In this document: positions 7,261 to 42,696 of the stretch, piece after piece
How positions within the stretch are numbered: the stretch's first letter is position 1
How the letters are laid out: each line of letters starts with the position of its first letter
Assembly: GCA_001873345.1 (NCBI GenBank)
Contig: MNYY01000051.1
Span: forward strand, 1 to 42,882
Length of the DNA: 42,882 nt
From: Candidatus Infernicultor aquiphilus
GTDB taxonomy: Bacteria; Atribacterota; Phoenicimicrobiia; Phoenicimicrobiales; Phoenicimicrobiaceae
Direction: 5' to 3'
The notes under the pieces: generated by a model
Told to the model about the DNA's origin: nothing
Seen by the model: only the letters and a program-made list of their open reading frames with translations
Databases searched by the model: none
Program-made: the position numbers and the translations under genes

Positions 7261-7698
7261 ATGCCAGAGGAAGAAATAATTGTCGCTATCGACCCTGGTA
7301 CCAAAAAGTGTGGCTATGCAGTAGTGGATTCTAATTTAAATGTTTTACAAAGAGAAGTTACTTTAGCAGAGAGAATAATAAATAGGATTAAAAATAGTTT
7401 TAAAGTTTACAATATAGAGGGGATTATTTTAGGAAAGGGCACTAATTATAAACAGATAGAAAATAAATTAAAAAACTATTTTCCTCGATTAAAAATTATC
7501 TTAATTGAGGAAAATTTCAGTACTTTAGAGGCAAGAAAAAAATATTTTGAAGCCTATCCACCTCGAGGTATTTCTAGACTTATCCCTCTATCCTTAAGAG
7601 TACCCCCTTGCCAATATGATGATTTTGTAGCAGTACTATTAGCAGAAAAGTATTTTAAAAATAAAAATAGTAGGGGCAGACCTTGTGTCTGCCCGTAA
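7261..7698 (+). CDS. YqgF/RuvX-like (RNase H-fold) putative nuclease; last 9 codons and stop supplied by a REP
   Basis: 145-aa ORF with AAGGAG upstream. The motifs IVAIDPGTKKCGYAVVD, IEENFSTLEAR and DDFVAVLLAEKYF resemble the YqgF family pattern. The C-terminal SRGRPCVCP-stop is encoded by REP copy 7670-7695. Confidence 0.45.
   Translation: MPEEEIIVAIDPGTKKCGYAVVDSNLNVLQREVTLAERIINRIKNSFKVYNIEGIILGKGTNYKQIENKLKNYFPRLKIILIEENFSTLEARKKYFEAYPPRGISRLIPLSLRVPPCQYDDFVAVLLAEKYFKNKNSRGRPCVCP
7670..7695 (+). repeat. REP element (GTAGGGGCAGACCTTGTGTCTGCCCG), forward orientation
   Basis: 8-bp stem GGGCAGAC/GTCTGCCC with a 5-nt loop and a 5' GTAG. The same 26-mer recurs at 12163, 12513, 22508 and 35577. 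Confidence 0.9.
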
Positions 7699-11094: not shown

Positions 11095-12191
11095 AATATA
11101 TTGATGAGTATAGGGATAAAAGAATAGCTCAAAACATCTTACAAAAAATTAATATTATTTCCAAAAAAAAGGTAAATTTAATGGAAGTTTGTGGAACCCA
11201 CACGGTAGCTATATTCAGAAATGATATCAAAAAAATATTACCTACCAATATTAATCTTATTTCTGGGCCGGGTTGCCCAGTATGTGTTACTCCCGTTTCC
11301 CATATTGATGAGATAATTAGTTTATCCCGAAAAGAAGATTTTATTATAACTACTTTTGGAGATATGATCAGGATTCCAGGTTCTACTTCTACTTTAGAGA
11401 AAGAAAAAACTAATAGTGCAGACATTAGAATTGTTTATTCTACTTTAGATGCTTTAAAAATTGCCCAAAATAATCCTTCCCAAGAGGTTATTTTTATGGG
11501 GGTGGGTTTTGAGACAACTTCTCCTACTATAGCCAGTGCAATATTAAAAGCCCAAGAAGGTAAAATTAATAATTTTTCTGTTTTGAGTGTAGCCAAGATT
11601 ATGCCTCCAGTAATGAAAGCTTTATTAGAAAGTAAAGAGGTAAATATTGATGGGTTTATTTGCCCCGGACATGTAAGTGCCATTATTGGGAGTCAACCTT
11701 TTAATTTTATTGCTGCTCAGTATGGAGTTCCTTGTGTCATCTGCGGATTTGAACCATTAGATATTTTAGAAGGTATTTATATGCTTATTAATCAAATTGA
11801 AAATGATAAAGCAGAAGTGGAAATTCAATATAAACGCGTAGTTAAACCAGAAGGGAATAGGATTGCCCTAGAGAGAATTAATGAGGTATTTAAAGTGGTT
11901 GATTCTAATTGGAGAGGGATAGGCAATATCCACCATAGTGGTTTAGAGATAAAAGATAAATATAATCAGCATAATGCCAGAAGATTTAAAGTGGAAATAG
12001 AAGAAACTAAAGAACCAAGAGGATGTCGTTGTGGCGAAGTCTTAAGGGGAATAATTATTCCTCCTGAATGTCCTCTCTTTGGAGAGATTTGTACCCCTGA
12101 AGACCCCCAAGGTGCTTGTATGGTTTCCAGTGAAGGCACCTGTGCCGCCTATTATAAATACAGTAGGGGCAGACCTTGTGTCTGCCCGTAA
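11091..12191 (+). CDS. hypD: Hydrogenase maturation Fe-S protein HypD; last 9 codons and stop supplied by a REP
   Basis: 366-aa ORF. The TTG start overlaps the hypC stop (TTGA). MKYIDEYRD, CGTHT, GPGCPVCV and the C-terminal CxxxP region match HypD. The C-terminal SRGRPCVCP-stop is REP-encoded, identical to the tail of ORF 7261-7698. Confidence 0.9.
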   Translation: MKYIDEYRDKRIAQNILQKINIISKKKVNLMEVCGTHTVAIFRNDIKKILPTNINLISGPGCPVCVTPVSHIDEIISLSRKEDFIITTFGDMIRIPGSTSTLEKEKTNSADIRIVYSTLDALKIAQNNPSQEVIFMGVGFETTSPTIASAILKAQEGKINNFSVLSVAKIMPPVMKALLESKEVNIDGFICPGHVSAIIGSQPFNFIAAQYGVPCVICGFEPLDILEGIYMLINQIENDKAEVEIQYKRVVKPEGNRIALERINEVFKVVDSNWRGIGNIHHSGLEIKDKYNQHNARRFKVEIEETKEPRGCRCGEVLRGIIIPPECPLFGEICTPEDPQGACMVSSEGTCAAYYKYSRGRPCVCP

Positions 12192-12240
12192 TAAGGCAGA
12201 CCTTGTGTCTGCCCGTAAAAAGGTAGATCCTGTATCTACC
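12163..12240 (+). repeat. Three tandem REP-type hairpins (full REP, 5'-truncated REP, diverged variant)
   Basis: 12163-12188 is GTAGGGGCAGACCTTGTGTCTGCCCG. 12195-12215 is GGCAGACCTTGTGTCTGCCCG. 12222-12240 is GGTAGATCCTGTATCTACC, with two compensatory C:G to T:A stem changes. Confidence 0.9.
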
Positions 12241-12257: not shown

Positions 12258-12875
12258 ATGTTGTCCATGAACATTAAAAATAAGAAGTGTAATCGTCAGT
12301 CTATTCGTCTTCATGGATACAATTATTCCTATCCTGGAGCATATTTTATAACCATATGTACCCCAGAACAGAAAATGTTGTTAAAATTTAAATATGTGCA
12401 GGTAATGATTCATTCTGTTTGGAATAGTTTACCCGATAGATTTCCTTCTGTAAAATTAGATGAATTTGTAATAATGCCAAATCACGTGCATGCAATTTTG
12501 TGTATAAATATAGTAGGGGCAGACCTTGTGTCTGCCCGTAATAAGGCAGACCTTTTGTCTGCCCCACCGCTTAGTCGTATTATTCAAGCATTTAAATCAA
12601 TTACAACTTATAAATATATTTTAGGGGTGAAAATAAATAATTGGCCAATGTTCAATAAACGCCTATGGCAACGGAATTATTATGACCATATAATACGTAG
12701 CGAGGAATCGTTGAATTGCATTAGAGAATATATTATTAATAATCCAACTCGATGGGAATTTGATAAGGAAAATCCTCGGGGTAAAATAGATAAAAAAGAG
12801 GAAGATTTTTGGAAGGAAATACACTCTCAACCTAAAATTAGGGCAGACATAAAGTCTGCCCCTACAAGGCGTTAA
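12258..12875 (+). CDS. REP-associated tyrosine transposase (RAYT, IS200/IS605 Y1 HUH family)
   Basis: 205-aa ORF. A start at ATG 12267 is more likely, 9 nt after AGGAG. SIRLHGYNYSYPGAYFITICT, the HUH motif MPNHVHAIL (HVH at 12483-12491) and LWQRNYYDHIIRSEESL...YIINNP are family hallmarks. REP DNA lies inside the ORF and at its 3' end. Confidence 0.8.
   Translation: MLSMNIKNKKCNRQSIRLHGYNYSYPGAYFITICTPEQKMLLKFKYVQVMIHSVWNSLPDRFPSVKLDEFVIMPNHVHAILCINIVGADLVSARNKADLLSAPPLSRIIQAFKSITTYKYILGVKINNWPMFNKRLWQRNYYDHIIRSEESLNCIREYIINNPTRWEFDKENPRGKIDKKEEDFWKEIHSQPKIRADIKSAPTRR
12513..12565 (+). repeat. REP doublet inside the RAYT coding sequence
   Basis: 12503-12564 matches 12153-12214 at 60 of 62 positions. 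Here it is read in another frame, as VGADLVSARNKADLLSAP. Confidence 0.9.
12841..12865 (-). repeat. REP, inverted orientation, forming the RAYT 3' end
   Basis: GGGCAGACATAAAGTCTGCCCCTAC. The stem is identical to the REP stem but the loop differs. It encodes RADIKSAPT. Confidence 0.85.
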
Positions 12876-14256: not shown

Positions 14257-14276
14257 TTATAAAGGTGGTTATAAAT

Positions 14277-14801
14277 ATGAAAGATAAAAAGGAAAGTGCT
14301 TATGTTAGATTAGCACGAGAGACAATTGAAAATTATATAAAATATGGAAATATAATTTCTCCTCCCCAAGATTTACCTGAAGAGATAATAAATCAAAAGG
14401 CTGGAGCATTTGTTTCTCTTAAAAAATATGGAAATTTAAGAGGATGTATCGGTACTTTTTTACCGACTGAAGAAAATATAGTTGCTGAGATTATCAGAAA
14501 TGCTATTAGTGCAGCTACTGGTGACCCTCGTTTCCCTCCAGTAACGATTTCTGAATTAAATGATTTAACTATTTCAGTTGATATTTTATCTCCTCCCGAA
14601 GAAGTTGAGGATATCTCCCAACTTAACCCCAAGAAATATGGGGTAATTGTAAGTAGCGGTTTTAAAAAAGGATTGCTATTGCCTGATTTAGAAGGTGTAG
14701 ATACAGTAGAGGAGCAGATTGATATTACTAAACGTAAAGCGGGTATTTATCCTGGTGAGAAAGTAAAATTGTATCGATTTGAAGTAAAAAGATATTATTA
14801 A
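14277..14801 (+). CDS. AMMECR1 domain protein (AmmeMemoRadiSam system protein A)
   Basis: [20 protein letters not shown] and DPRFPPV are AMMECR1 signatures. ATG 14277 is preferred because AAGGTGG lies upstream. The track start is GTG 14265. Confidence 0.85.
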
Positions 14802-14802
14802 A

Positions 14803-14863
14803 TTCGTATCTCGTATTTCGTGAATCGTATCTCGTAAATAAAATAGAATCCAGAATCCAGAAT
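14803..14863 (-). repeat. Module M2 reverse (14803-14838) followed by module M5 heptamers (14843-14863)
   Basis: TTCGTATCTCGTATTTCGTGAATCGTATCTCG is the reverse complement of 26607-26638 at 31 of 32 positions. ATAGAATCCAGAATCCAGAAT follows. Confidence 0.9.
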
Positions 14864-14889
14864 AATAAATAAATTAGAGCGTTTAGGAG

Positions 14890-14961
14890 GTAGGGGCTCG
14901 ATTCATCGAGCCCGCTTGGGAAGTTACCAAACAATGCGGGTCGAATAAATTCGACCCCTAC
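14890..14961. repeat. GC-rich hairpin pair H2 + H3 bracketed by GTAG...CTAC
   Basis: GTAGGGGCTCGATTCATCGAGCCCGC ... GGGTCGAATAAATTCGACCCCTAC. Paralogues are at 32027-32083 and 36274-36330. H2 alone occurs at 30667-30692. Confidence 0.9.
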
Positions 14962-14984
14962 TCCAAAATTAGAGCTCCCAATGA

Positions 14985-15031
14985 CTAACGACTAATAGAC
15001 AGGCGAGACGCCTGTCCTACTAACGACTAAT
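14985..15031 (+). repeat. Hairpin H4 (GACAGGCG-AGA-CGCCTGTC) flanked by an 11-bp direct repeat TAACGACTAAT (module M4)
   Basis: CTAACGACTAAT-AGACAGGCGAGACGCCTGTCCTAC-TAACGACTAAT. H4 recurs at 30757-30781 and, inverted, at 42626-42650. Confidence 0.9.
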
Positions 15032-15049
15032 TAAGAGGTGATTACTTAA

Positions 15050-16048
15050 ATGAAAGAGGCTTTATTTTACGAATTAGTGGATCAAGAAAAAGGGGTCATA
15101 AAATGTCTGCTTTGTCCTAAAGAATGTTTAATAAAGAAAGACCAGGTTGGTTTTTGCCGAGCTCGTAAAAATATAAATAATAAACTTTATTCTTTAATCT
15201 ATTCTAAAATTTCTTCCTATGGAATGGATCCCATTGAAAAAAAACCACTTTATCATTTTTATCCCGGAATAATGGTTTTATCTCTGGGTACCATAGGATG
15301 CAATTTATCTTGTGACTTTTGTCAGAACTGGACTATTTCTCAGGCAAATATAAAAGATGTGTCAGTAGAAGAGTTATCACCTGAAAAGGCTGTGCAATTA
15401 GCTCTTCAGAATAATTCCCCAGCGATTGCCTACACCTATTCTGAACCATTAATCTGGTATGAATACGTGCTGGATACCGCGAAATTAGCGAAGAAAAATA
15501 ATTTAAAAAATATATTGGTTACCAATGGATTTATTAATTATGAACCTCTCCTTAAAATTCTTCCTTTTATAGATGCTTTGAACATTGACCTTAAATCTTT
15601 TCGAAATTCTTTCTATCAAAAATATTGCCAAGGAAAATTGTCTCCTGTACTACGTACTATCGAGCTTTCTAAAGAATATTGCCATCTAGAAATAACCAAT
15701 CTAATTATCCCTGGTTTGAATGATAGCGAAGAGGAAATTAAAGAGATGGTGGATTGGATTTCTTCTTTAAATGAAGAAATACCTTTGCATTTTTCTCGCT
15801 ATTTTCCTTGTTATAAGATGAATATTTCGGCAACCCCCATTTCCACATTGTATAAAGCTCGGGAGATTGCTCAAAAAAAATTGAAATATGTATATCTAGG
15901 TAATATATGGGATGAGGAAGCTAACGCCACTTATTGTGGTAACTGTAAGACACTTTTGATTAAAAGAACAGGTTATAATATTATTAATTTGGGCTTGGAT
16001 GAAGATGGAAAATGCAGACATTGTGGTGAAAAAGTAGTTCATCTTTAG
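15050..16048 (+). CDS. AmmeMemoRadiSam system radical SAM enzyme
   Basis: 332-aa ORF with AAGAGGTGA upstream. It has an N-terminal CxxCxxxC...C region, DPIEKKPLYHF and the radical-SAM motif GCNLSCDFCQNW. Its partner is the adjacent AMMECR1 gene. Confidence 0.85.
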   Translation: MKEALFYELVDQEKGVIKCLLCPKECLIKKDQVGFCRARKNINNKLYSLIYSKISSYGMDPIEKKPLYHFYPGIMVLSLGTIGCNLSCDFCQNWTISQANIKDVSVEELSPEKAVQLALQNNSPAIAYTYSEPLIWYEYVLDTAKLAKKNNLKNILVTNGFINYEPLLKILPFIDALNIDLKSFRNSFYQKYCQGKLSPVLRTIELSKEYCHLEITNLIIPGLNDSEEEIKEMVDWISSLNEEIPLHFSRYFPCYKMNISATPISTLYKAREIAQKKLKYVYLGNIWDEEANATYCGNCKTLLIKRTGYNIINLGLDEDGKCRHCGEKVVHL

Positions 16049-22507: not shown

Positions 22508-22578
22508 GTAGGGGCAGACCTTGTGTCTGCCCGTAATGCGTAATTAGTCCTACGGGCAGACACAAGGTCTGTCCCTAC
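22508..22578. repeat. REPIN: two REPs in inverted orientation
   Basis: GTAGGGGCAGACCTTGTGTCTGCCCG (22508-22533), a 19-nt spacer, then CGGGCAGACACAAGGTCTGTCCCTAC (22553-22578, one mismatch). The flanks are shared with the REPIN at 35577-35690. Confidence 0.9.
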
Positions 22579-30497: not shown

Positions 30498-30523
30498 GTG
30501 GGCACGATGCATCGTGCCCCTAC
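30498..30523. repeat. Hairpin H5: perfect 20-nt palindrome GGGCACGATGCATCGTGCCC with a 3' CTAC
   Basis: GTGGGCACGATGCATCGTGCCCCTAC. This is the only copy in the window. Confidence 0.85.
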
Positions 30524-30666: not shown

Positions 30667-30692
30667 GTAGGGGCTTGATTTATCAAGCCCGG
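30667..30692 (+). repeat. Hairpin H2 (GTAGGGGCTTGATTTATCAAGCCCGG)
   Basis: 9-bp stem GGGCTTGAT/ATCAAGCCC. The same hairpin occurs at 32027 and 36274. Confidence 0.9.
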
Positions 30693-30710: not shown

Positions 30711-30781
30711 ATTGCCACGCTCTGATAAATCAGAGCTCGCAATGACTGACGACTAATAGACAGGCGAGACGCCTGTCCTAC
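30711..30781 (+). repeat. Hairpin module M9 (ATTGCCACGC..GCTCGCAAT) + M4 + hairpin H4
   Basis: ATTGCCACGCTCTGATAAATCAGAGCTCGCAATGAC TGACGACTAAT AGACAGGCGAGACGCCTGTCCTAC. The inverted copy is at 42626-42696. Confidence 0.9.
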
Positions 30782-30790
30782 GAATTTTTT

Positions 30791-30944
30791 GGTAAATTGG
30801 TAAATTGGAGAATCGGTAAATTGGTAAATTGGAGAATCGGTAAATTGGTCAATTGGAGAATCGGTAAATTGGTCAATTGGAGAATCGGTAAATTGGTCAA
30901 TTGGAGAATTGGTAAATTGGTTAATTGGTTAATTGATAAATCGG
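30791..30944 (+). repeat. Module M1: five tandem 24-bp units (three octamers each, GGTAAATT-GGTMAATT-GGAGAATC) plus a degenerate tail
   Basis: Units lie at 30791, 30815, 30839, 30863 and 30887, and the tail is 30911-30944. The array overlaps the GGAGG SD (30943-30947) of pfkA. Confidence 0.95.
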
Positions 30945-30957
30945 AGGTAAAATTATT

Positions 30958-31923
30958 ATGAAAATGAAAAAAATTGTTGTTCTTACCAGTGGTGGAGATT
31001 CTCCTGGAATGAATGCTGCTATTAGAGCGGTGGTACGAACTGGCCTATTCCACGGCTTAGAGGTATTTGGTGTGGAAAGAGGGTATACCGGTTTAATAGA
31101 AGGGCAAATTTTTCCGATGAATATATCTTCAGTAGGTGGAATTATACAAAGAGGAGGAACTATTCTTAAGACTTCCCGTTGTGAGAAATTTAAAACTAAG
31201 GAGGGGCTTGATATGGCCCTTCAAAAAATTAGAGAATTTAATATTGATGGATTAGTAGCTATTGGGGGGGACGGTACTTTTCGAGGGATTCGAGAGTTCA
31301 GTGCTTTAGGAGTAAAAACTATGGGAGTTCCCGCTACTATTGATAATGATTTATCTGACACTGATATGGCTATTGGTGTAGACACTGCTTTAAATACAGT
31401 TATGGGGGCTATTGACAAAATCAAAGATACTGCTTCTTCTCATGAGAGAGCTTTTATAATAGAAGTTATGGGAAGAAATTCAGGTTATCTGGCCTTAATG
31501 GGTGGAATTGCTGGAGGAGTTGAAGTTATTCTTATTCCGGAAATTTCTTATAATCTCCCGGAAATTAGTTTAAAATTAAAAGAGGGCTACCAAAGAGGAA
31601 AGTCTCATTGTATTATTGTTATTGCTGAAGGAGTCGGAGAGACTTATGAAATAAGTAAATTTTTAGAAGATAAAATTGGCTTTGAAACGAGAGTTACTAT
31701 TTTAGGTTATTTGCAGAGAGGTGGTTCGCCTTCTGCATTTGATAGGTTATTAGCCAGTCGTTTGGGAGCAGCAGCTGTAGAACATCTACTAAAGGGAGAA
31801 ACATCTAAAATGGTAGGACTAATGGGAAATAAGATTGAAGCAACTGATTTAGAGGTAGTGCTTAGTCAACCAAAAACTATTAGCCAGGATCTTTATAATT
31901 TAGCTTTAAGGTTAGCGAAATAG
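30958..31923 (+). CDS. pfkA: ATP-dependent 6-phosphofructokinase
   Basis: VLTSGGDSPGMNAAIRAVVR, IGGDGTF, PATIDNDL, MGRNSGYLAL and GYLQRGG. Confidence 0.92.
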   Translation: MKMKKIVVLTSGGDSPGMNAAIRAVVRTGLFHGLEVFGVERGYTGLIEGQIFPMNISSVGGIIQRGGTILKTSRCEKFKTKEGLDMALQKIREFNIDGLVAIGGDGTFRGIREFSALGVKTMGVPATIDNDLSDTDMAIGVDTALNTVMGAIDKIKDTASSHERAFIIEVMGRNSGYLALMGGIAGGVEVILIPEISYNLPEISLKLKEGYQRGKSHCIIVIAEGVGETYEISKFLEDKIGFETRVTILGYLQRGGSPSAFDRLLASRLGAAAVEHLLKGETSKMVGLMGNKIEATDLEVVLSQPKTISQDLYNLALRLAK

Positions 31924-31926
31924 TAG

Positions 31927-31974
31927 TTCGTATCTCGTAGATAAGACAGAAGACAGAAGTCAGAAGTCAGAATA
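31927..31974 (-). repeat. Module M2 reverse (31927-31939) followed by M5 heptamers (31947-31974)
   Basis: TTCGTATCTCGTA, then CAGAAGA CAGAAGT CAGAAGT CAGAATA. Confidence 0.9.
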
Positions 31975-32026: not shown

Positions 32027-32083
32027 GTAGGGGCTTGATTTATCAAGCCCGCAATACTCGGGTCGGATAAATCCGCCCCCTAC
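32027..32083. repeat. Hairpin pair H2 + H3 bracketed by GTAG...CTAC
   Basis: GTAGGGGCTTGATTTATCAAGCCCGCAATACTCGGGTCGGATAAATCCGCCCCCTAC. It is preceded by M6 (AGAGCAGTTAGCGTTTGGG, 32006-32024). Confidence 0.9.
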
Positions 32084-32136
32084 AAGAAATAATGAAACTT
32101 CAAGACCATTCCTTGAAAGAAATAAGGAAAATTTAA

Positions 32137-35100
32137 ATGAGCTTATCGAAAATATTATCCTTATGGAATAAATCTGAAGAATTTAAAGATATAGTAAAAA
32201 CTATAAAGGGAAATCAACTAAATAAATTCTGGGTTTCCGGTCTTAAAGATAGCACCCGTTCTTTTTTTATGGCTGCTTTAGGAAGTGAGATAGAAAAATC
32301 TTACCTTATTATCGTTGATTCTCCAGAGAATGCCCTAAAGATATACCAAGATCTGGATACTTTTTGGTATAGATCAAAGAACCAGGAAGAGAATCTCTTT
32401 CTCTTACCTTCTTTTGAGGTCCTCCCCTATGAGGATATCAATTCTGATCCCCAGATAATCGAGCAAAGGATCAATATTCTAAAATATCTTTCTACCAATG
32501 ACCAAAATAAAAAGAGAATCATCTTAATCGCTGAGGTTAAAGCTTTGTTGCCTAAATTAGTCTCTCCTCAAAACTTTAAGAAGATAAGTTGGGAATTAAA
32601 AGTAGGAGATGATCTAAAAAAAGAGGATTTTTTAAAAATTTTATTAGATCAGAATTATAAAACGGTAGAAATAGTTGAAAAAAAAAGCGAATTTAGCAAT
32701 CGGGGAGGAATTATCGATTTTTTCCCAGTAACCAGTGAAAATCCTCTTCGATTAGAATTATTTGGAGACCAAATAGAATCAATCAGATATTTTAATAGCA
32801 ATACTCAAAGGTCGATACTCAAATTGAATAATTATACTCTTCTGCCTTCTCGAGAATTAATTGCTGATGGTTCCTCTAATTATAATTATAGTACTATATT
32901 TGATTATTTACCTTCAGATTTAATAGTATTATTGAATGAACCGGAAGTAATTAGAGAAAAAGCGGAGAAATTTCAGGAAGAGATGGAACATATTTACCAA
33001 AAAATACCATCTTCTTATTTTATCACCTGGTCTGAGGTATTTAACCATCTAAAATCTAAAAGAATGATTAATTTTACTTACTTTTCGGAGAAAAATAAAG
33101 AAGAAATTTTCCTTAATCAGACCGAGAAACAAGATAATAGCAGAGAGTTTGTTTTAGAGGGTCAAGAAATGGGGTCTTATTTTGGAAATTTAGATCTATT
33201 TACTAAGGATTTAGAAAAGTGGCAGAAAGATAAACAAAATATTCTTATTCTAGTCCGGGATAAAGGGCGTGCCAGACGTTTAGGTGAGATATTAGAAGAA
33301 AGAGGAGTAAAAAGATTTATCCTAGGAGGGATAGAAGAATATACTCCCTTAAAATCAACTATCTTTATTTCTTATGGTTATCTAAATTATGGTTTTAGAC
33401 TTCCTTTTTTAAAAATAGTTTTAATAACTGATCAGGAAATATTTGGCAAGGAAAGGAACAAAAGATATAAATTAACCAGACATAAGAGTGAACCCTTTTT
33501 CACAGCAATGGATATCTCTCCAGGAGATTATGTAGTACATATTGATCATGGTATAGGGGAATATAAAGGGGTGGTAAATTTAATGGTTAAAGGAGTAAAA
33601 CAAGATTATCTTTTAATCCAATATGCCGAAGGGGATAAATTATATGTCCCGGTAGATCAATTTAATTTGGTTAATAGATATATAGGTATAAAGGATAAAG
33701 CTCCTAAAGTTAATCGTTTAGGAGGAGTTTCTTGGGGAGAAGCCAAAAGAAAAGTAAAAAGGTCGATTCAAAAATTAGCTCAAGAACTTTACAATTTATA
33801 TATTGCTCGTAAAGAGGTTAAAGGTTTTGCCTTTTCTAAAGATAATAACTGGCAACAAGAATTGGAGATGTCTTTCCCTTTTGAAGAAACTTATGATCAA
33901 TTGCAGGCCTTATCGGAGGTTAAAGCTGATATGGAAAGTATCAAACCTATGGAGAGATTAGTTTGCGGAGATGTAGGTTATGGCAAAACAGAGATAGCCA
34001 TAAGAGCTTCCTTTAAAGCGGTATTAGATGGAAAGCAAGTTGCCGTTTTAGCACCAACTACTATTTTGGTACAACAACATTATGATAATTTTCGAGAAAG
34101 AATGAATTCTTTTCCTATAAATATAGATATGCTTTCTCGTTTTAGAACCAAACAGGAACAGAAAAAAGTTATCGAAGATCTAAAAGAAGGGAAAGTAGAT
34201 TTGGTTATCGGAACTCATCGATTAATTCAAAATGATATTGAGTTTAAAGATTTGGGATTGTTAATCGTGGATGAAGAGCAGCGTTTTGGAGTCCTGCACA
34301 AAGAAAGAATAAAAAAATTAAAAGAAAATATTGATTCTCTTACTCTGACTGCTACTCCTATCCCTCGGACCTTACATATGTCACTTATTGGAGTTAGAGA
34401 CTTAAGTGTGATAAATACTCCACCTGAAGACAGATTCCCTATCGCCACTTATGTCTGTCCAAGAGATGATAAAGTGATTGCAGAGGCTATAAGAAGAGAA
34501 TTAGATCGGGATGGACAAATATTCTTTGTCCACAATCGAGTAAGAGATATCCAAAAAGTGGCTCGAGATTTGAATCAGCTCTTTCCTCAAGCCAGAATTG
34601 GAATTGCTCATGGCCAGATGGCAGAAGAACAATTAGAAGAAATAATGATTGATTTTTTAGAAAAGAGATTTAATATCTTAGTTTGTACTACCATCATCGA
34701 AATTGGTTTAGATATTCCCAATGTAAATACTATTCTAATTGATGATGCCCATAAATTAGGACTTTCTCAACTTTATCAGCTAAGGGGAAGAGTGGGAAGG
34801 ACTGACCGACGAGCTTATGCTTATTTCTTTTATCCTTCCTATCGCGGAATTAATGATACTGCTAAAAAGAGATTAGAGGCAATTAAAGAGTTCAGTGAAT
34901 TAGGTTCTGGATTTAAATTGGCTATGCGTGATTTAGAAATTCGAGGAGCAGGGAATCTATTAGGTAAGGAGCAGCATGGTGTAGTAAGTGAAGTAGGGTT
35001 TAATCTTTACTGCCATTTATTAGAAGAGGCTATTCAGGAATTACGAGAAGAAAAAGAGGGGGAAGAGAAGAAAAAAGAAATTACTCCGGTTATTGATCTA

Positions 35101-35552: not shown

Positions 35553-35576
35553 AAGAAAATAATAATGTACAATATG

Positions 35577-35690
35577 TAGGGGCAGACCTTGTGTCTGCCC
35601 GAAATGAGTACATTCAAAACAATAGTTTATACAAAAAAATTTTTAATTATGGTTTTTAGTCCTACGGGCAGACACAAGGTCTGCCCCTAC
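35577..35690. repeat. REPIN: inverted REP pair with a 63-nt A/T-rich spacer
   Basis: GTAGGGGCAGACCTTGTGTCTGCCCG-type REP at 35577-35601 and CGGGCAGACACAAGGTCTGCCCCTAC at 35665-35690. The conserved flanks AATAATAATGTAYAATAY and TAGTCCTAC...GAYTATT are shared with the REPIN at 22508-22578. Confidence 0.9.
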
Positions 35691-36244: not shown

Positions 36245-36392
36245 ATATGGCGGGTAGAGTTTAGCGTGTAGAGGTAGGGGCTTGATTTATCAAGCCCGCA
36301 GAACTCGGGTCGGATAAATCCGACCCCTACATCAAAAACAATACTTTATTGACTTAGCCTATACGCTAAACGCTGTACGCTATACGCTAACC
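36245..36392. repeat. Nested palindrome: M6 forward, hairpin pair H2+H3 (36274-36330), M6 reverse
   Basis: ATATGGCGGGTAGAGTTTAGCGTGTAGAG, then GTAGGGGCTTGATTTATCAAGCCCGCAGAACTCGGGTCGGATAAATCCGACCCCTAC, then TACGCTAAACGCTGTACGCTATACGCTAACC. Confidence 0.9.
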
Positions 36393-36408
36393 ATATACTA
36401 ACGAATGC

Positions 36409-36476
36409 AATTGGCAAATTGGCAAATTGGTAAATTGGCAAATTGGTGCATTAGTGCATTGGTAAATTGGAGAATT
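36409..36476 (+). repeat. Module M1 octamer array, forward (8.5 units)
   Basis: AATTGGCA AATTGGCA AATTGGTA AATTGGCA AATTGGTG CATTAGTG CATTGGTA AATTGGAG AATT. The last GGAG serves as the SD for ATG 36482. Confidence 0.95.
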
Positions 36477-42625: not shown

Positions 42626-42696
42626 GTAGGACAGGTGTCTCGCCTGTCTATTAGTCGTTAGTCATTGCGAGCTTTGATTTATCGAAGCGTGGCAAT
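42626..42696 (-). repeat. Inverted copy of H4 + M4 + M9 composite
   Basis: GTAGGACAGGTGTCTCGCCTGTCTA TTAGTCGTTA GTCATTGCGAGCTTTGATTTATCGAAGCGTGGCAAT. It is the reverse complement of 30711-30781 with a few substitutions. Confidence 0.9.

Follow-up and report, generated by a model that had tools for sequence, protein, structure and literature searches.

Repetitive extragenic palindromes (REPs) of the GTAG superfamily, which includes the SMAG repeats of Stenotrophomonas maltophilia (Di Nocera, De Gregorio & Rocco 2013, PMC3733652), are hairpins of ∼20 to 25 nt that carry GTAG, unpaired, at one of their ends. They occur as several stem families per genome, form homodimers, heterodimers, and hybrid dimers, have repeat-specific REPtrons, and are found mostly between co-directional genes, with some copies inside genes. 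The hairpins analyzed here, on a 42,882-nt contig of Candidatus Infernicultor aquiphilus (MNYY01000051.1; the window), are alike in all of these respects, but they come from Atribacterota, a phylum that the text of that paper does not name as a host of GTAG repeats. The window is the whole of contig C67 of genome G000, a 1.59-Mb metagenome-assembled genome (MAG) with 33% G+C, 152 contigs, and 93% completeness; all genomes compared with it are incomplete MAGs. A preliminary description of positions 14890 to 15020 had recognized five hairpin families (H1 to H5) sharing a GTAG or CTAC bracket and a single REP-associated tyrosine transposase (RAYT), and had proposed that either one RAYT services several families or additional RAYTs exist elsewhere in the genome. 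Our analysis indicates that the hairpins are members of the GTAG-tagged superfamily, probably non-autonomous elements made and moved by RAYTs of the HUH/Y1 type (TnpA-REP). The five families in all likelihood trace to four RAYT lineages of this Atribacterota family, of which the genome keeps two, RAYT-A and RAYT-B; the other two, RAYT-C and RAYT-D, would have been lost and their repeats left behind. H1 is paired with RAYT-A, and H5 and the GGGCGTAT hairpins with RAYT-B, in G000, while H2 and H3 (left, L, and right, R, types) are paired with RAYT-C and H4 with RAYT-D in sister genomes or metagenome contigs only.

The bracket is strongly enriched, well above chance and beyond the few copies first described. 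Across G000, 754 hairpins have an 8-bp stem with at most one mismatch, a loop of 3 to 5 nt, and at least four G/C per arm, and the 4-mer at their foot is GTAG 257 times versus 31 times for the runner-up (background frequency of GTAG, 0.3% per site). Tagged hairpins number 249 genome-wide, 212 of them with perfect stems, and 19 lie in the window, where GTAGGGGC was observed 12 times compared to an expected 0.43. Eleven stem families take in 240 of the 249; the tag is present on 92% of all copies of these stems, and only 20 copies are untagged. The families are as follows.

GGGTCGGA, 57 copies, described previously as H3
GGGCGTAT, 42 copies, not previously named
GGGTTCGA, 31 copies, not previously named
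GGGCAGAC, 29 copies, H1
GACAGGCG, 16 copies, H4
GGGCTCGA, 15 copies, a variant of H2
GGGTTTGA, 12 copies, not previously named
GGGCTTGA, 11 copies, H2
GGGTCGAA, 11 copies, a variant of H3
GGGCACGA, 8 copies, H5
GGGGCGGA, 8 copies, not previously named

The base of the stem is GGG in 10 of the 11 families. The loop is CTTGT in H1, TGC(A) in GGGCGTAT and H5, TT(T/C)A in all GGGnnnGA/AA (L and R) stems, and TCT in H4; these loops are asymmetric and keep one fixed orientation relative to GTAG within each group, so that the tag defines a strand. The compensated stem variants that had been reported are real, with stems linked by single compensated steps into a TCGGA/TCGAA/GCGGA network and a TTCGA/CTCGA/CTTGA/TTTGA/CACGA network. 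The REPs of Escherichia coli differ in being imperfect, bulged palindromes that are recognized differently (PMC8266576), whereas those here are perfect 8-bp palindromes with loops of 3 to 5 nt. For a REP that is a perfect palindrome, GTAG and the loop were found to be critical and the stem sequence only mildly so (PMC8266576). In an Rfam search of the window the hairpins matched no family, the only hits being nearby tRNAs and a cobalamin riboswitch. Other repeated GC-rich hairpins that do not carry GTAG are also present in G000 (TCTGCGTG, 15 copies; TGTGCGTG, 10; CAAGGGGA, 10; ATTCCCGC, 9).

The stretch from 14890 to 15020 falls in a 248-nt spacer between a gene of the AMMECR1 family (14265-14801) and a radical-SAM gene (15050-16048) and holds three hairpins.

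14890 to 14913, plus strand: L-type REP hairpin, GTAG-GGGCTCGA-TTCA-TCGAGCCC, the left half of a heterologous doublet
14938 to 14961, minus strand: R-type REP hairpin, GGGTCGAA-TAAA-TTCGACCC-CTAC, with CTAC at the 3' end, the right half of the doublet
14998 to 15020, minus strand: H4 REP, GACAGGCG-AGA-CGCCTGTC-CTAC

All of the hairpins and doublets quoted earlier, including the doublets at 14890-14961, 32027-32083, and 36274-36330, were confirmed at their coordinates.

A Pfam Y1_Tnp search of the whole genome returned eight places: two short RAYTs, five longer RAYT-like genes, and one fragment at a contig end. Only one RAYT is indeed visible in the window, but the genome as a whole has a second of the same class in addition to the five longer genes. 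The two short RAYTs and the H1 hairpins associated with the first of them are listed below (ORF, open reading frame).

12258 to 12875, plus strand: RAYT-A, a HUH/Y1 REP-associated tyrosine transposase (Pfam Y1_Tnp E = 9e-7)
12163 to 12240, plus strand: left arm of REPtron-A, with a tagged H1, an untagged H1 (12195-12213), and a diverged copy (12222-12240)
12513 to 12563, plus strand: H1 doublet in frame inside RAYT-A, between the HuH motif and the Tyr
12841 to 12865, minus strand: H1 forming the right arm of REPtron-A and overlapping the RAYT-A ORF at its 3' end
7670 to 7694, plus strand: H1 REP, GTAG-GGGCAGAC with loop CTTGT, providing the end codons and stop of a RuvX-like ORF (7261-7698)
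C10:19749-20372, minus strand: RAYT-B, flanked by GGGCGTAT hairpins, with an H5 hairpin upstream

RAYT-A is flanked on both sides by H1 with GTAG outward. Its HuH motif is NHVH at residue 76, followed by WQRNYYDHIIR at residue 137 and the catalytic Tyr in REYIINNP at residue 158. The gene lies between hypD and hypE, and it occupies the same locus in three further genomes (G017, G044, and G042) and in G031 of the neighboring family, a constancy that fits vertical inheritance of a resident gene. One H1 REP type supplies the last codons and TAA stop of both the RuvX-like gene and hypD (7670-7698 and 12163-12191); hypD of the close relative G001 ends with its own ...TACGATTAG instead of H1.

RAYT-A and RAYT-B are 40% identical to each other, and each holds one or two in-frame copies of its own REP between HuH and Tyr. 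Embedded in-frame REPs were also found in most RAYT homologues of the relatives, and an internal tagged hairpin was found in 50 of 77 diverse RAYT homologues from other phyla. An embedded REP doublet as a novelty of RAYT-A and RAYT-B was considered and rejected, as it is a published hallmark of TnpA-Y1 subclass 2.4 (Quentin et al. 2018, PMC6006769), the equivalent of RAYT group 4 in Bertels et al. 2017. Further likenesses to that subclass are the three G-C pairs at the base of the stem, the "double-foot" REPs (GGGCGTAT copies tagged on both sides, GTAG...CTAC), the in-frame REP insertion between HuH and Tyr at the variable insertion between beta3 and alphaC, HuH-to-Tyr distances of 82 and 89 residues compared to a reported median of 88, the lack of a conserved C-terminal extension domain, and patchy spread across phyla. 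RAYT-A and RAYT-B are placed in subclass 2.4 by these shared features, rather than by the hidden Markov model profiles of its authors, and the placement is to be read as a probable one. Both fell below the 80-bit cut-off of NCBIfam REP_Tyr_transpos (63.3 bits for RAYT-A and 64.7 bits for RAYT-B); the internal REP insertions split the match.

E. coli TnpA-REP (4ER8) aligns with both short RAYTs on the HuH half and the Tyr half. Quentin et al. (PMC6006769) named W94, Q95, E100, H101, and R104 as the residues that contact GTAG. The equivalents of W94, Q95, E100 (D in RAYT-A), H101, R104, Y115, and N119 are kept in RAYT-A in an ungapped alignment to 4ER8, in which the Asn four residues past the catalytic Tyr aligns with N119, and they are visible in RAYT-B and RAYT-C. 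The patch reads WQRNYYDHIIR in RAYT-A, WQRNYYEHIIR in RAYT-B, and WQRNYYEHVIR in RAYT-C.

The five longer RAYT-like genes (C132:10581-11384; C23:9078-9413, minus strand; C10:25681-26010, minus strand; C120:1343-2224; and C33:5128-5841) are of 240 to 330 amino acids and score 60 to 80 bits with NCBIfam REP_Tyr_transpos. Each is flanked by its own inverted repeat, which is not of the GTAG type and has 4 to 13 copies, these being raw matches in which palindromic sites are counted on both strands. The genes match the TIRYT/TIRtron class, RAYT-like genes with unrelated inverted repeats (PMC3733652).

H2 and H3 are not independent families but the L and R ends of one element, REPtron-C. Among the GGGnnnGA/AA stems, the L set is TTCGA, CTCGA, CTTGA, and TTTGA, and the R set is TCGGA, TCGAA, GCGGA, and TTGGA. 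The GTAG-out doublets of these stems are 43 L-R, 0 L-L, and 0 R-R genome-wide, a tally that is a description and not an independent test because the sets were drawn partly from those pairings. The earlier statement that H2 and H3 always occur as a doublet was too strong, since doublets genome-wide take in 43 of the 69 L-type copies and 43 of the 77 of R type, and the H2 at 30667 is paired with H4. The window copies concerned are as follows.

32027 to 32092, plus strand: in situ remnant of REPtron-C, with a GTAG-L hairpin (GGGCTTGA), a 9-nt spacer, an R hairpin (GGGTCGGA, one mismatch)-CTAC, and AAGAAATAA
36274 to 36330: L-R doublet, GGGCTTGA/GGGTCGGA, with the 9-nt spacer GCAGAACTC
30667 to 30690, plus strand: H2, L type, GGGCTTGA, its partner here being H4 and not H3
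30759 to 30781, minus strand: H4 REP

Independent evidence is provided by relatives. RAYT-C is a third RAYT, of ∼166 amino acids and with 35 to 40% identity to RAYT-A and RAYT-B, found in three genomes of a sister genus (G014, G024, and G019). It differs from subclass 2.4 in having no internal insertion, a HuH-to-Tyr distance of 55 residues, and REPs in its terminal codons. Its frame opens just before a GTAG-GGGTTCGA or GTAG-GGGCTCGA hairpin and closes just after a GGGTCGGA-CTAC hairpin; L and R hairpins inside the ends of a RAYT reading frame are a point of difference from the described GTAG REPs. The flanks of the RAYT-C locus in all three genomes match window positions 30940-31942 (pfk) and 32143-33498 (mfd) with 75 to 82% identity, and the RAYT-C site therefore corresponds to the position of the window doublet at 32027-32083. 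In the sister genomes the layout is GTAG-L hairpin, ∼420 nt of RAYT-C, and R hairpin-CTAC-AAGAAATAA; in the same spacer of the window it is GTAG-L hairpin, GCAATACTC, and R hairpin-CTAC-AAGAAATAA. The nine bases after the window doublet are the last two codons of RAYT-C and its stop. Because these end codons and stop persist at the pfk-mfd locus, the doublet at 32027-32083 is, as judged from the alignments, what an in situ deletion has left of REPtron-C. G011 has a second gene-less remnant, with a different spacer, at its pfk-mfd locus. The doublet at 36274-36330 is almost the same unit, and the near-likeness of the spacers GCAGAACTC and GCAATACTC suggests that the gene-less two-ended L-R unit may itself have been copied. 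In E. coli, the REPtron has been deleted in some strains and the REPs stay (Ton-Hoang et al. 2012, as cited in PMC3733652).

Loss from the assembly rather than from the organism could also account for the missing RAYTs, since RAYT-C, RAYT-D, or both might be present in the organism and have dropped out of a MAG of 152 contigs, in which case every family would have its own RAYT in this genome as well. Genes flanked by repeats are prone to such loss, and for 44 of the 232 tagged hairpins in intergenic positions no called gene separates the hairpin from a contig end. However, the ancestral RAYT-C locus is fully assembled in the window and holds the doublet only, a tblastn search with RAYT-A, B, C, and D together with the Pfam scan found no copy or fragment of RAYT-C or RAYT-D in the assembly and no further copy of the others, and four relatives have RAYT-A, and three have RAYT-C, at a single fixed locus. 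We consider an assembly artifact improbable overall.

Other published doublets offer partial parallels to the L-R pairs. E. coli bacterial interspersed mosaic elements (BIMEs), with Y and Z REPs that alternate in orientation, are alike in having inverted heterologous REP pairs and one TnpA-REP flanked by such REPs. The REP doublets forming hairpins (REPINs) of Bertels & Rainey 2011 are alike in being inverted REP doublets that act as the replicative unit with a single-copy, vertically inherited RAYT, but they join two nearly identical REPs, which together can fold as a single long hairpin, whereas the L and R stems differ and only the outer GTAGGGG/CCCCTAC can pair between the halves of an L-R doublet. 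The L-R doublets thus lack the near-identical inverted REPs that define a REPIN, which the two H1/H1 pairs of the window would have. In addition to the L-R doublets, the dimers seen genome-wide are H1/H1 homodimers and a few hybrid pairs.

22508 to 22578: H1/H1 GTAG-out homodimer (units at 22508 and 22554)
35576 to 35690: H1/H1 GTAG-out pair with a 65-nt spacer (units at 35576 and 35666)

Some doublets lie within a MITE-like repeat (one that resembles miniature inverted-repeat transposable elements), with ∼21 copies in G000. It has an arm ATGGTTGTAACCCAAAAAGTAAACAAACCTGTCCTCGACCTGATCGGGGAATGGTAAT followed by GTAG and an inverted CTTTTTGGGTTATAACCAT at the far end (for example C10:1720-1960, C116:6210-6500, C132:17820-18100, and C144:19460-19760; loci L025-L030). 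The same internal GTAG of this repeat is the site of 13 L-R doublets, out of the 43, and of several R hairpins that stand singly, and a copy at C95 has that GTAG with no hairpin. Six copies searched in Rfam matched no family.

RAYT-B is associated with two stem families, GGGCGTAT and GGGCACGA, which share the loop TGCA. The second association is drawn from the H5 hairpin upstream of RAYT-B on C10 and from a B-type RAYT of G015 (L015, G015:C105), which is flanked by and contains GGGCACGA together with GGGCACAA/GGGCACCA hairpins and has GGGCGTAT copies alongside. Over its first 280 nt, RAYT-B of G000 (C10:19749-20372, minus strand) shares 99% identity with its counterpart in G015, compared to ∼82% for other genes. 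The embedded REP cassette is swapped, with two GGGCGTAT in G000 versus GGGCACAA and GGGCACGA in G015, and the 3' part is similar again, though less identical. This pattern suggests a recent transfer of RAYT-B between the two genera and recombination at the embedded REPs.

H4 was sought in metagenomes with the exact 23-mer GTAGGACAGGCGTCTCGCCTGTC, which is present on at least 120 contigs, 80 of which were kept as loci (L177-L256). The G+C content of these 80 contigs ranges from 30 to 71%; the same H4 REP thus appears in very different organisms, often as GTAG-out homodimers. In 3 of the 80, there is a RAYT of ∼175 amino acids (RAYT-D) whose coding sequence includes GTAG-H4 at the 5' end and whose stop codon is overlapped by H4-CTAC, the TAG stop being part of the downstream H4 REP. 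A 70% identical orthologue, likewise flanked by H4, lies between glyA and pepP in the sister genome G006. H4 was not found beside 80 diverse subclass-2.4 RAYT loci from named genomes, and its cognate enzyme belongs to a more distant RAYT lineage. No match to the H4 sequence was found in the text of the literature, a negative of little weight, as figures lie outside such a text search. In G000 the pepP side of the RAYT-D locus is the very start of contig C41, so that for RAYT-D absence and non-assembly are indistinguishable; this position, at a contig start that opens with a decayed R-hairpin array, is a point in favor of an assembly artifact. The array (C41:1-147, L307) consists of three R-type hairpins with GTAG in tandem, of which two are decayed, and each hairpin is followed by GTCTTTAT(A/G)TTCTTTGTTCTTT.

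Additional RAYTs are therefore better supported than a single enzyme, with RAYT-B on C10, RAYT-C in G014, G019, and G024, and RAYT-D in G006 and metagenome contigs, although most of them lie outside this genome and not elsewhere within it as had been supposed. For the lineage as a whole, each family has its own flanked RAYT; inside G000 this is not so, RAYT-C being deleted and RAYT-D not in the assembly. Each RAYT is tied to two or more different stems in a limited sense, L and R for RAYT-C and GGGCGTAT and GGGCACGA for RAYT-B.

The GTAGGGGYNNGAT pattern, which covers the L, H5, and most R stems, was found in 23 of 24 family genomes searched and is nearly absent from the neighboring family; G000 has 137 matches, and a reversed-pattern control gave 2. 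The distribution of GTAGGGGCRKAY is like that of GTAGGGGYNNGAT. Subclass-2.4 RAYTs were detected in only 10 of 30 family genomes, which is to be read as "not found" rather than "absent" because all of these genomes are incomplete MAGs; none was detected in G001. The flanking genes of G001 are 96 to 98% identical to those of G000, yet most of the REP sites of the window are missing there: every H1 site, REPtron-A among them, the cluster at 14890-15020, the doublet at 36274, and the H4 at 30759. Only two sites are common to both genomes.

30500 to 30523, minus strand: H5 REP, GGGCACGA with loop TGCA and CTAC (decayed in G001)
42626 to 42648, plus strand: H4 REP with one arm mutated (GACAGGTG)

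Nine more relatives likewise lack the 14890 cluster, with a decayed H4 at the same place in G015, and because of these absences it is best read as a probable gain in the G000 lineage. The spacers of the window (for example 14802-14889, 15021-15049, and 36331-36466, and their G001 orthologues) are built of short repeated words (such as TAGTCGTTAG, GGTAAATT, and CGTATCT) and are almost wholly different between genomes whose flanking genes are 96 to 98% identical.

Several points count against an explanation by four RAYT lineages, two of them lost. The assignments of enzymes to hairpins rest on sequence, the biochemistry being from other systems; the genomes compared are all incomplete, G000 itself being 93% complete; and the L and R classes were partly defined by the pairings later counted. 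L/R and H4 copies look recently gained (14890-15020, 36274-36330, and 30759-30781, present in G000 and missing from G001) though neither RAYT-C nor RAYT-D is in the assembly. The GTAGGGGYNNGAT matches number 137 in G000 versus 31 in G001, and the orphan L/R stems are no more decayed than the stems of resident RAYTs (124 of 145 versus 69 of 79 perfect).

The last three of these points are also what would be expected if RAYT-A, RAYT-B, or both had kept mobilizing L/R and H4 hairpins after the loss of RAYT-C and RAYT-D, through the shared GTAG foot and GGG stem base, and the G001 count would fit the lack of a detected subclass-2.4 RAYT there. Cross-servicing of this kind is also favored by composite arrays that place H1 immediately next to H4 or L units, by the association of nearly the same RAYT-B core with two stem families, and by the report that E. 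coli TnpA-REP has some cross-activity on Marinomonas REPs (PMC8266576). The loops, however, differ between the groups (CTTGT and TGCA versus TTYA and TCT), and in the only perfect-palindrome system examined, binding or cleavage was abolished when the loop was reversed or its first base changed (PMC8266576). A cognate RAYT exists in the lineage for each group. Furthermore, the RAYT-C remnant in the window looks fresh and is different from that of G001, so that the loss of RAYT-C may be recent and independent and cross-activity would not be needed, and the 13 doublets that ride in the MITE-like repeat may have multiplied with it. Cross-mobilization of the orphan H2/H3 and H4 hairpins by resident RAYTs is possible, but the data do not require it, and we regard it as an unlikely account of their spread. 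It is similarly doubtful that whole orphan families (∼145 L/R and ∼16 to 23 H4 copies) stay intact and keep inserting by means of paralogous RAYTs that share only the GTAG-reading patch. The proposal that one RAYT services several families is thus retained only as an option for the orphans, with RAYT-B and RAYT-C each associated with two stems.

The genomic context of the hairpins could be taken to indicate a host function. With crude ORF calls, which underlie all context statistics, the genome is ∼84% coding and 232 of the 249 tagged hairpins (93%) lie outside ORFs, mostly between co-directional genes. The orientation of the REP versus gene direction in co-directional spacers is 22:1 for GGGCGTAT, 15:4 for H1, and 34:7 for the L types, which may reflect the replication strand. 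By the same calls, the genes of G000 are strongly co-oriented, with 1,090 tandem, 71 convergent, and 63 divergent spacers. The location and orientation bias, the stop codons that some hairpins supply, and the roles ascribed to REPs in a passage of PMC3733652 would suit terminators or mRNA stabilizers kept and copied by recombination, with the link to RAYTs incidental. In contrast, the hairpins have no trailing T-run, their presence varies between near-identical genomes, each family flanks a RAYT in inverted, GTAG-out arrangement, and REP copies are found inside the RAYT genes themselves. Such an origin is very unlikely, less likely than either of the other alternatives, although a host role and RAYT-driven spread are compatible with each other. 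Intrinsic terminators in particular were rejected as the main explanation because no T-run follows the hairpins.

A mechanism for the four-lineage explanation can be outlined by analogy. RAYTs bind folded single-stranded REPs, and GTAG is needed for cleavage, according to published biochemistry; as in E. coli and S. maltophilia, the Atribacterota enzymes would bind the folded hairpin on single-stranded DNA. The 5' GTAG foot would be read by the conserved W-Q...(E/D)-H..R patch beside the helix of the catalytic Tyr, and paralogue-specific contacts would read the loop and upper stem, which give each group its identity. Identity based on the loop fits the data because within a RAYT group it is the loop that stays constant and not the central part of the stem. 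The shared GTAG would then reflect common descent of RAYT paralogues that keep the GTAG-reading residues, rather than one enzyme for all families. RAYT-C was deleted in situ from between the hairpins at its two ends, of which the doublet at 32027-32083 remains, and the other L-R doublets, including that at 14890-14961, would be copies of the gene-less two-ended unit. The H2/H3 and H4 orphans most likely spread before the loss of RAYT-C and RAYT-D.

As a whole, the system matches the published GTAG REP superfamily and the subclass-2.4 RAYTs and is an ordinary REP/RAYT system, differing in that G000 keeps only two of four cognate transposases. In the GTAG-REP/RAYT literature compared (PMC3733652, PMC6006769, and PMC8266576), we did not find a description of a GTAG-REP system in Atribacterota or of a heterologous doublet that represents both ends of a REPtron lost by deletion at its own site. 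A search of the genome and its relatives resolves the apparent puzzle of five families and one transposase. The documented association of GTAG REPs with subclass-2.4 RAYTs is extended to Atribacterota, an uncultured subsurface phylum, and the window offers a clear natural case in which a heterologous REP doublet consists of both ends of a REPtron that has lost its gene by deletion in situ; the two halves of doublets of this sort would differ because each is a different REPtron end. The orphaned REP families beside non-cognate RAYT paralogues provide a testable case that bears on how strictly RAYTs discriminate among REPs. If cross-servicing did prove true, the GTAG foot would be a common currency, with one RAYT adopting the orphaned repeats of another.

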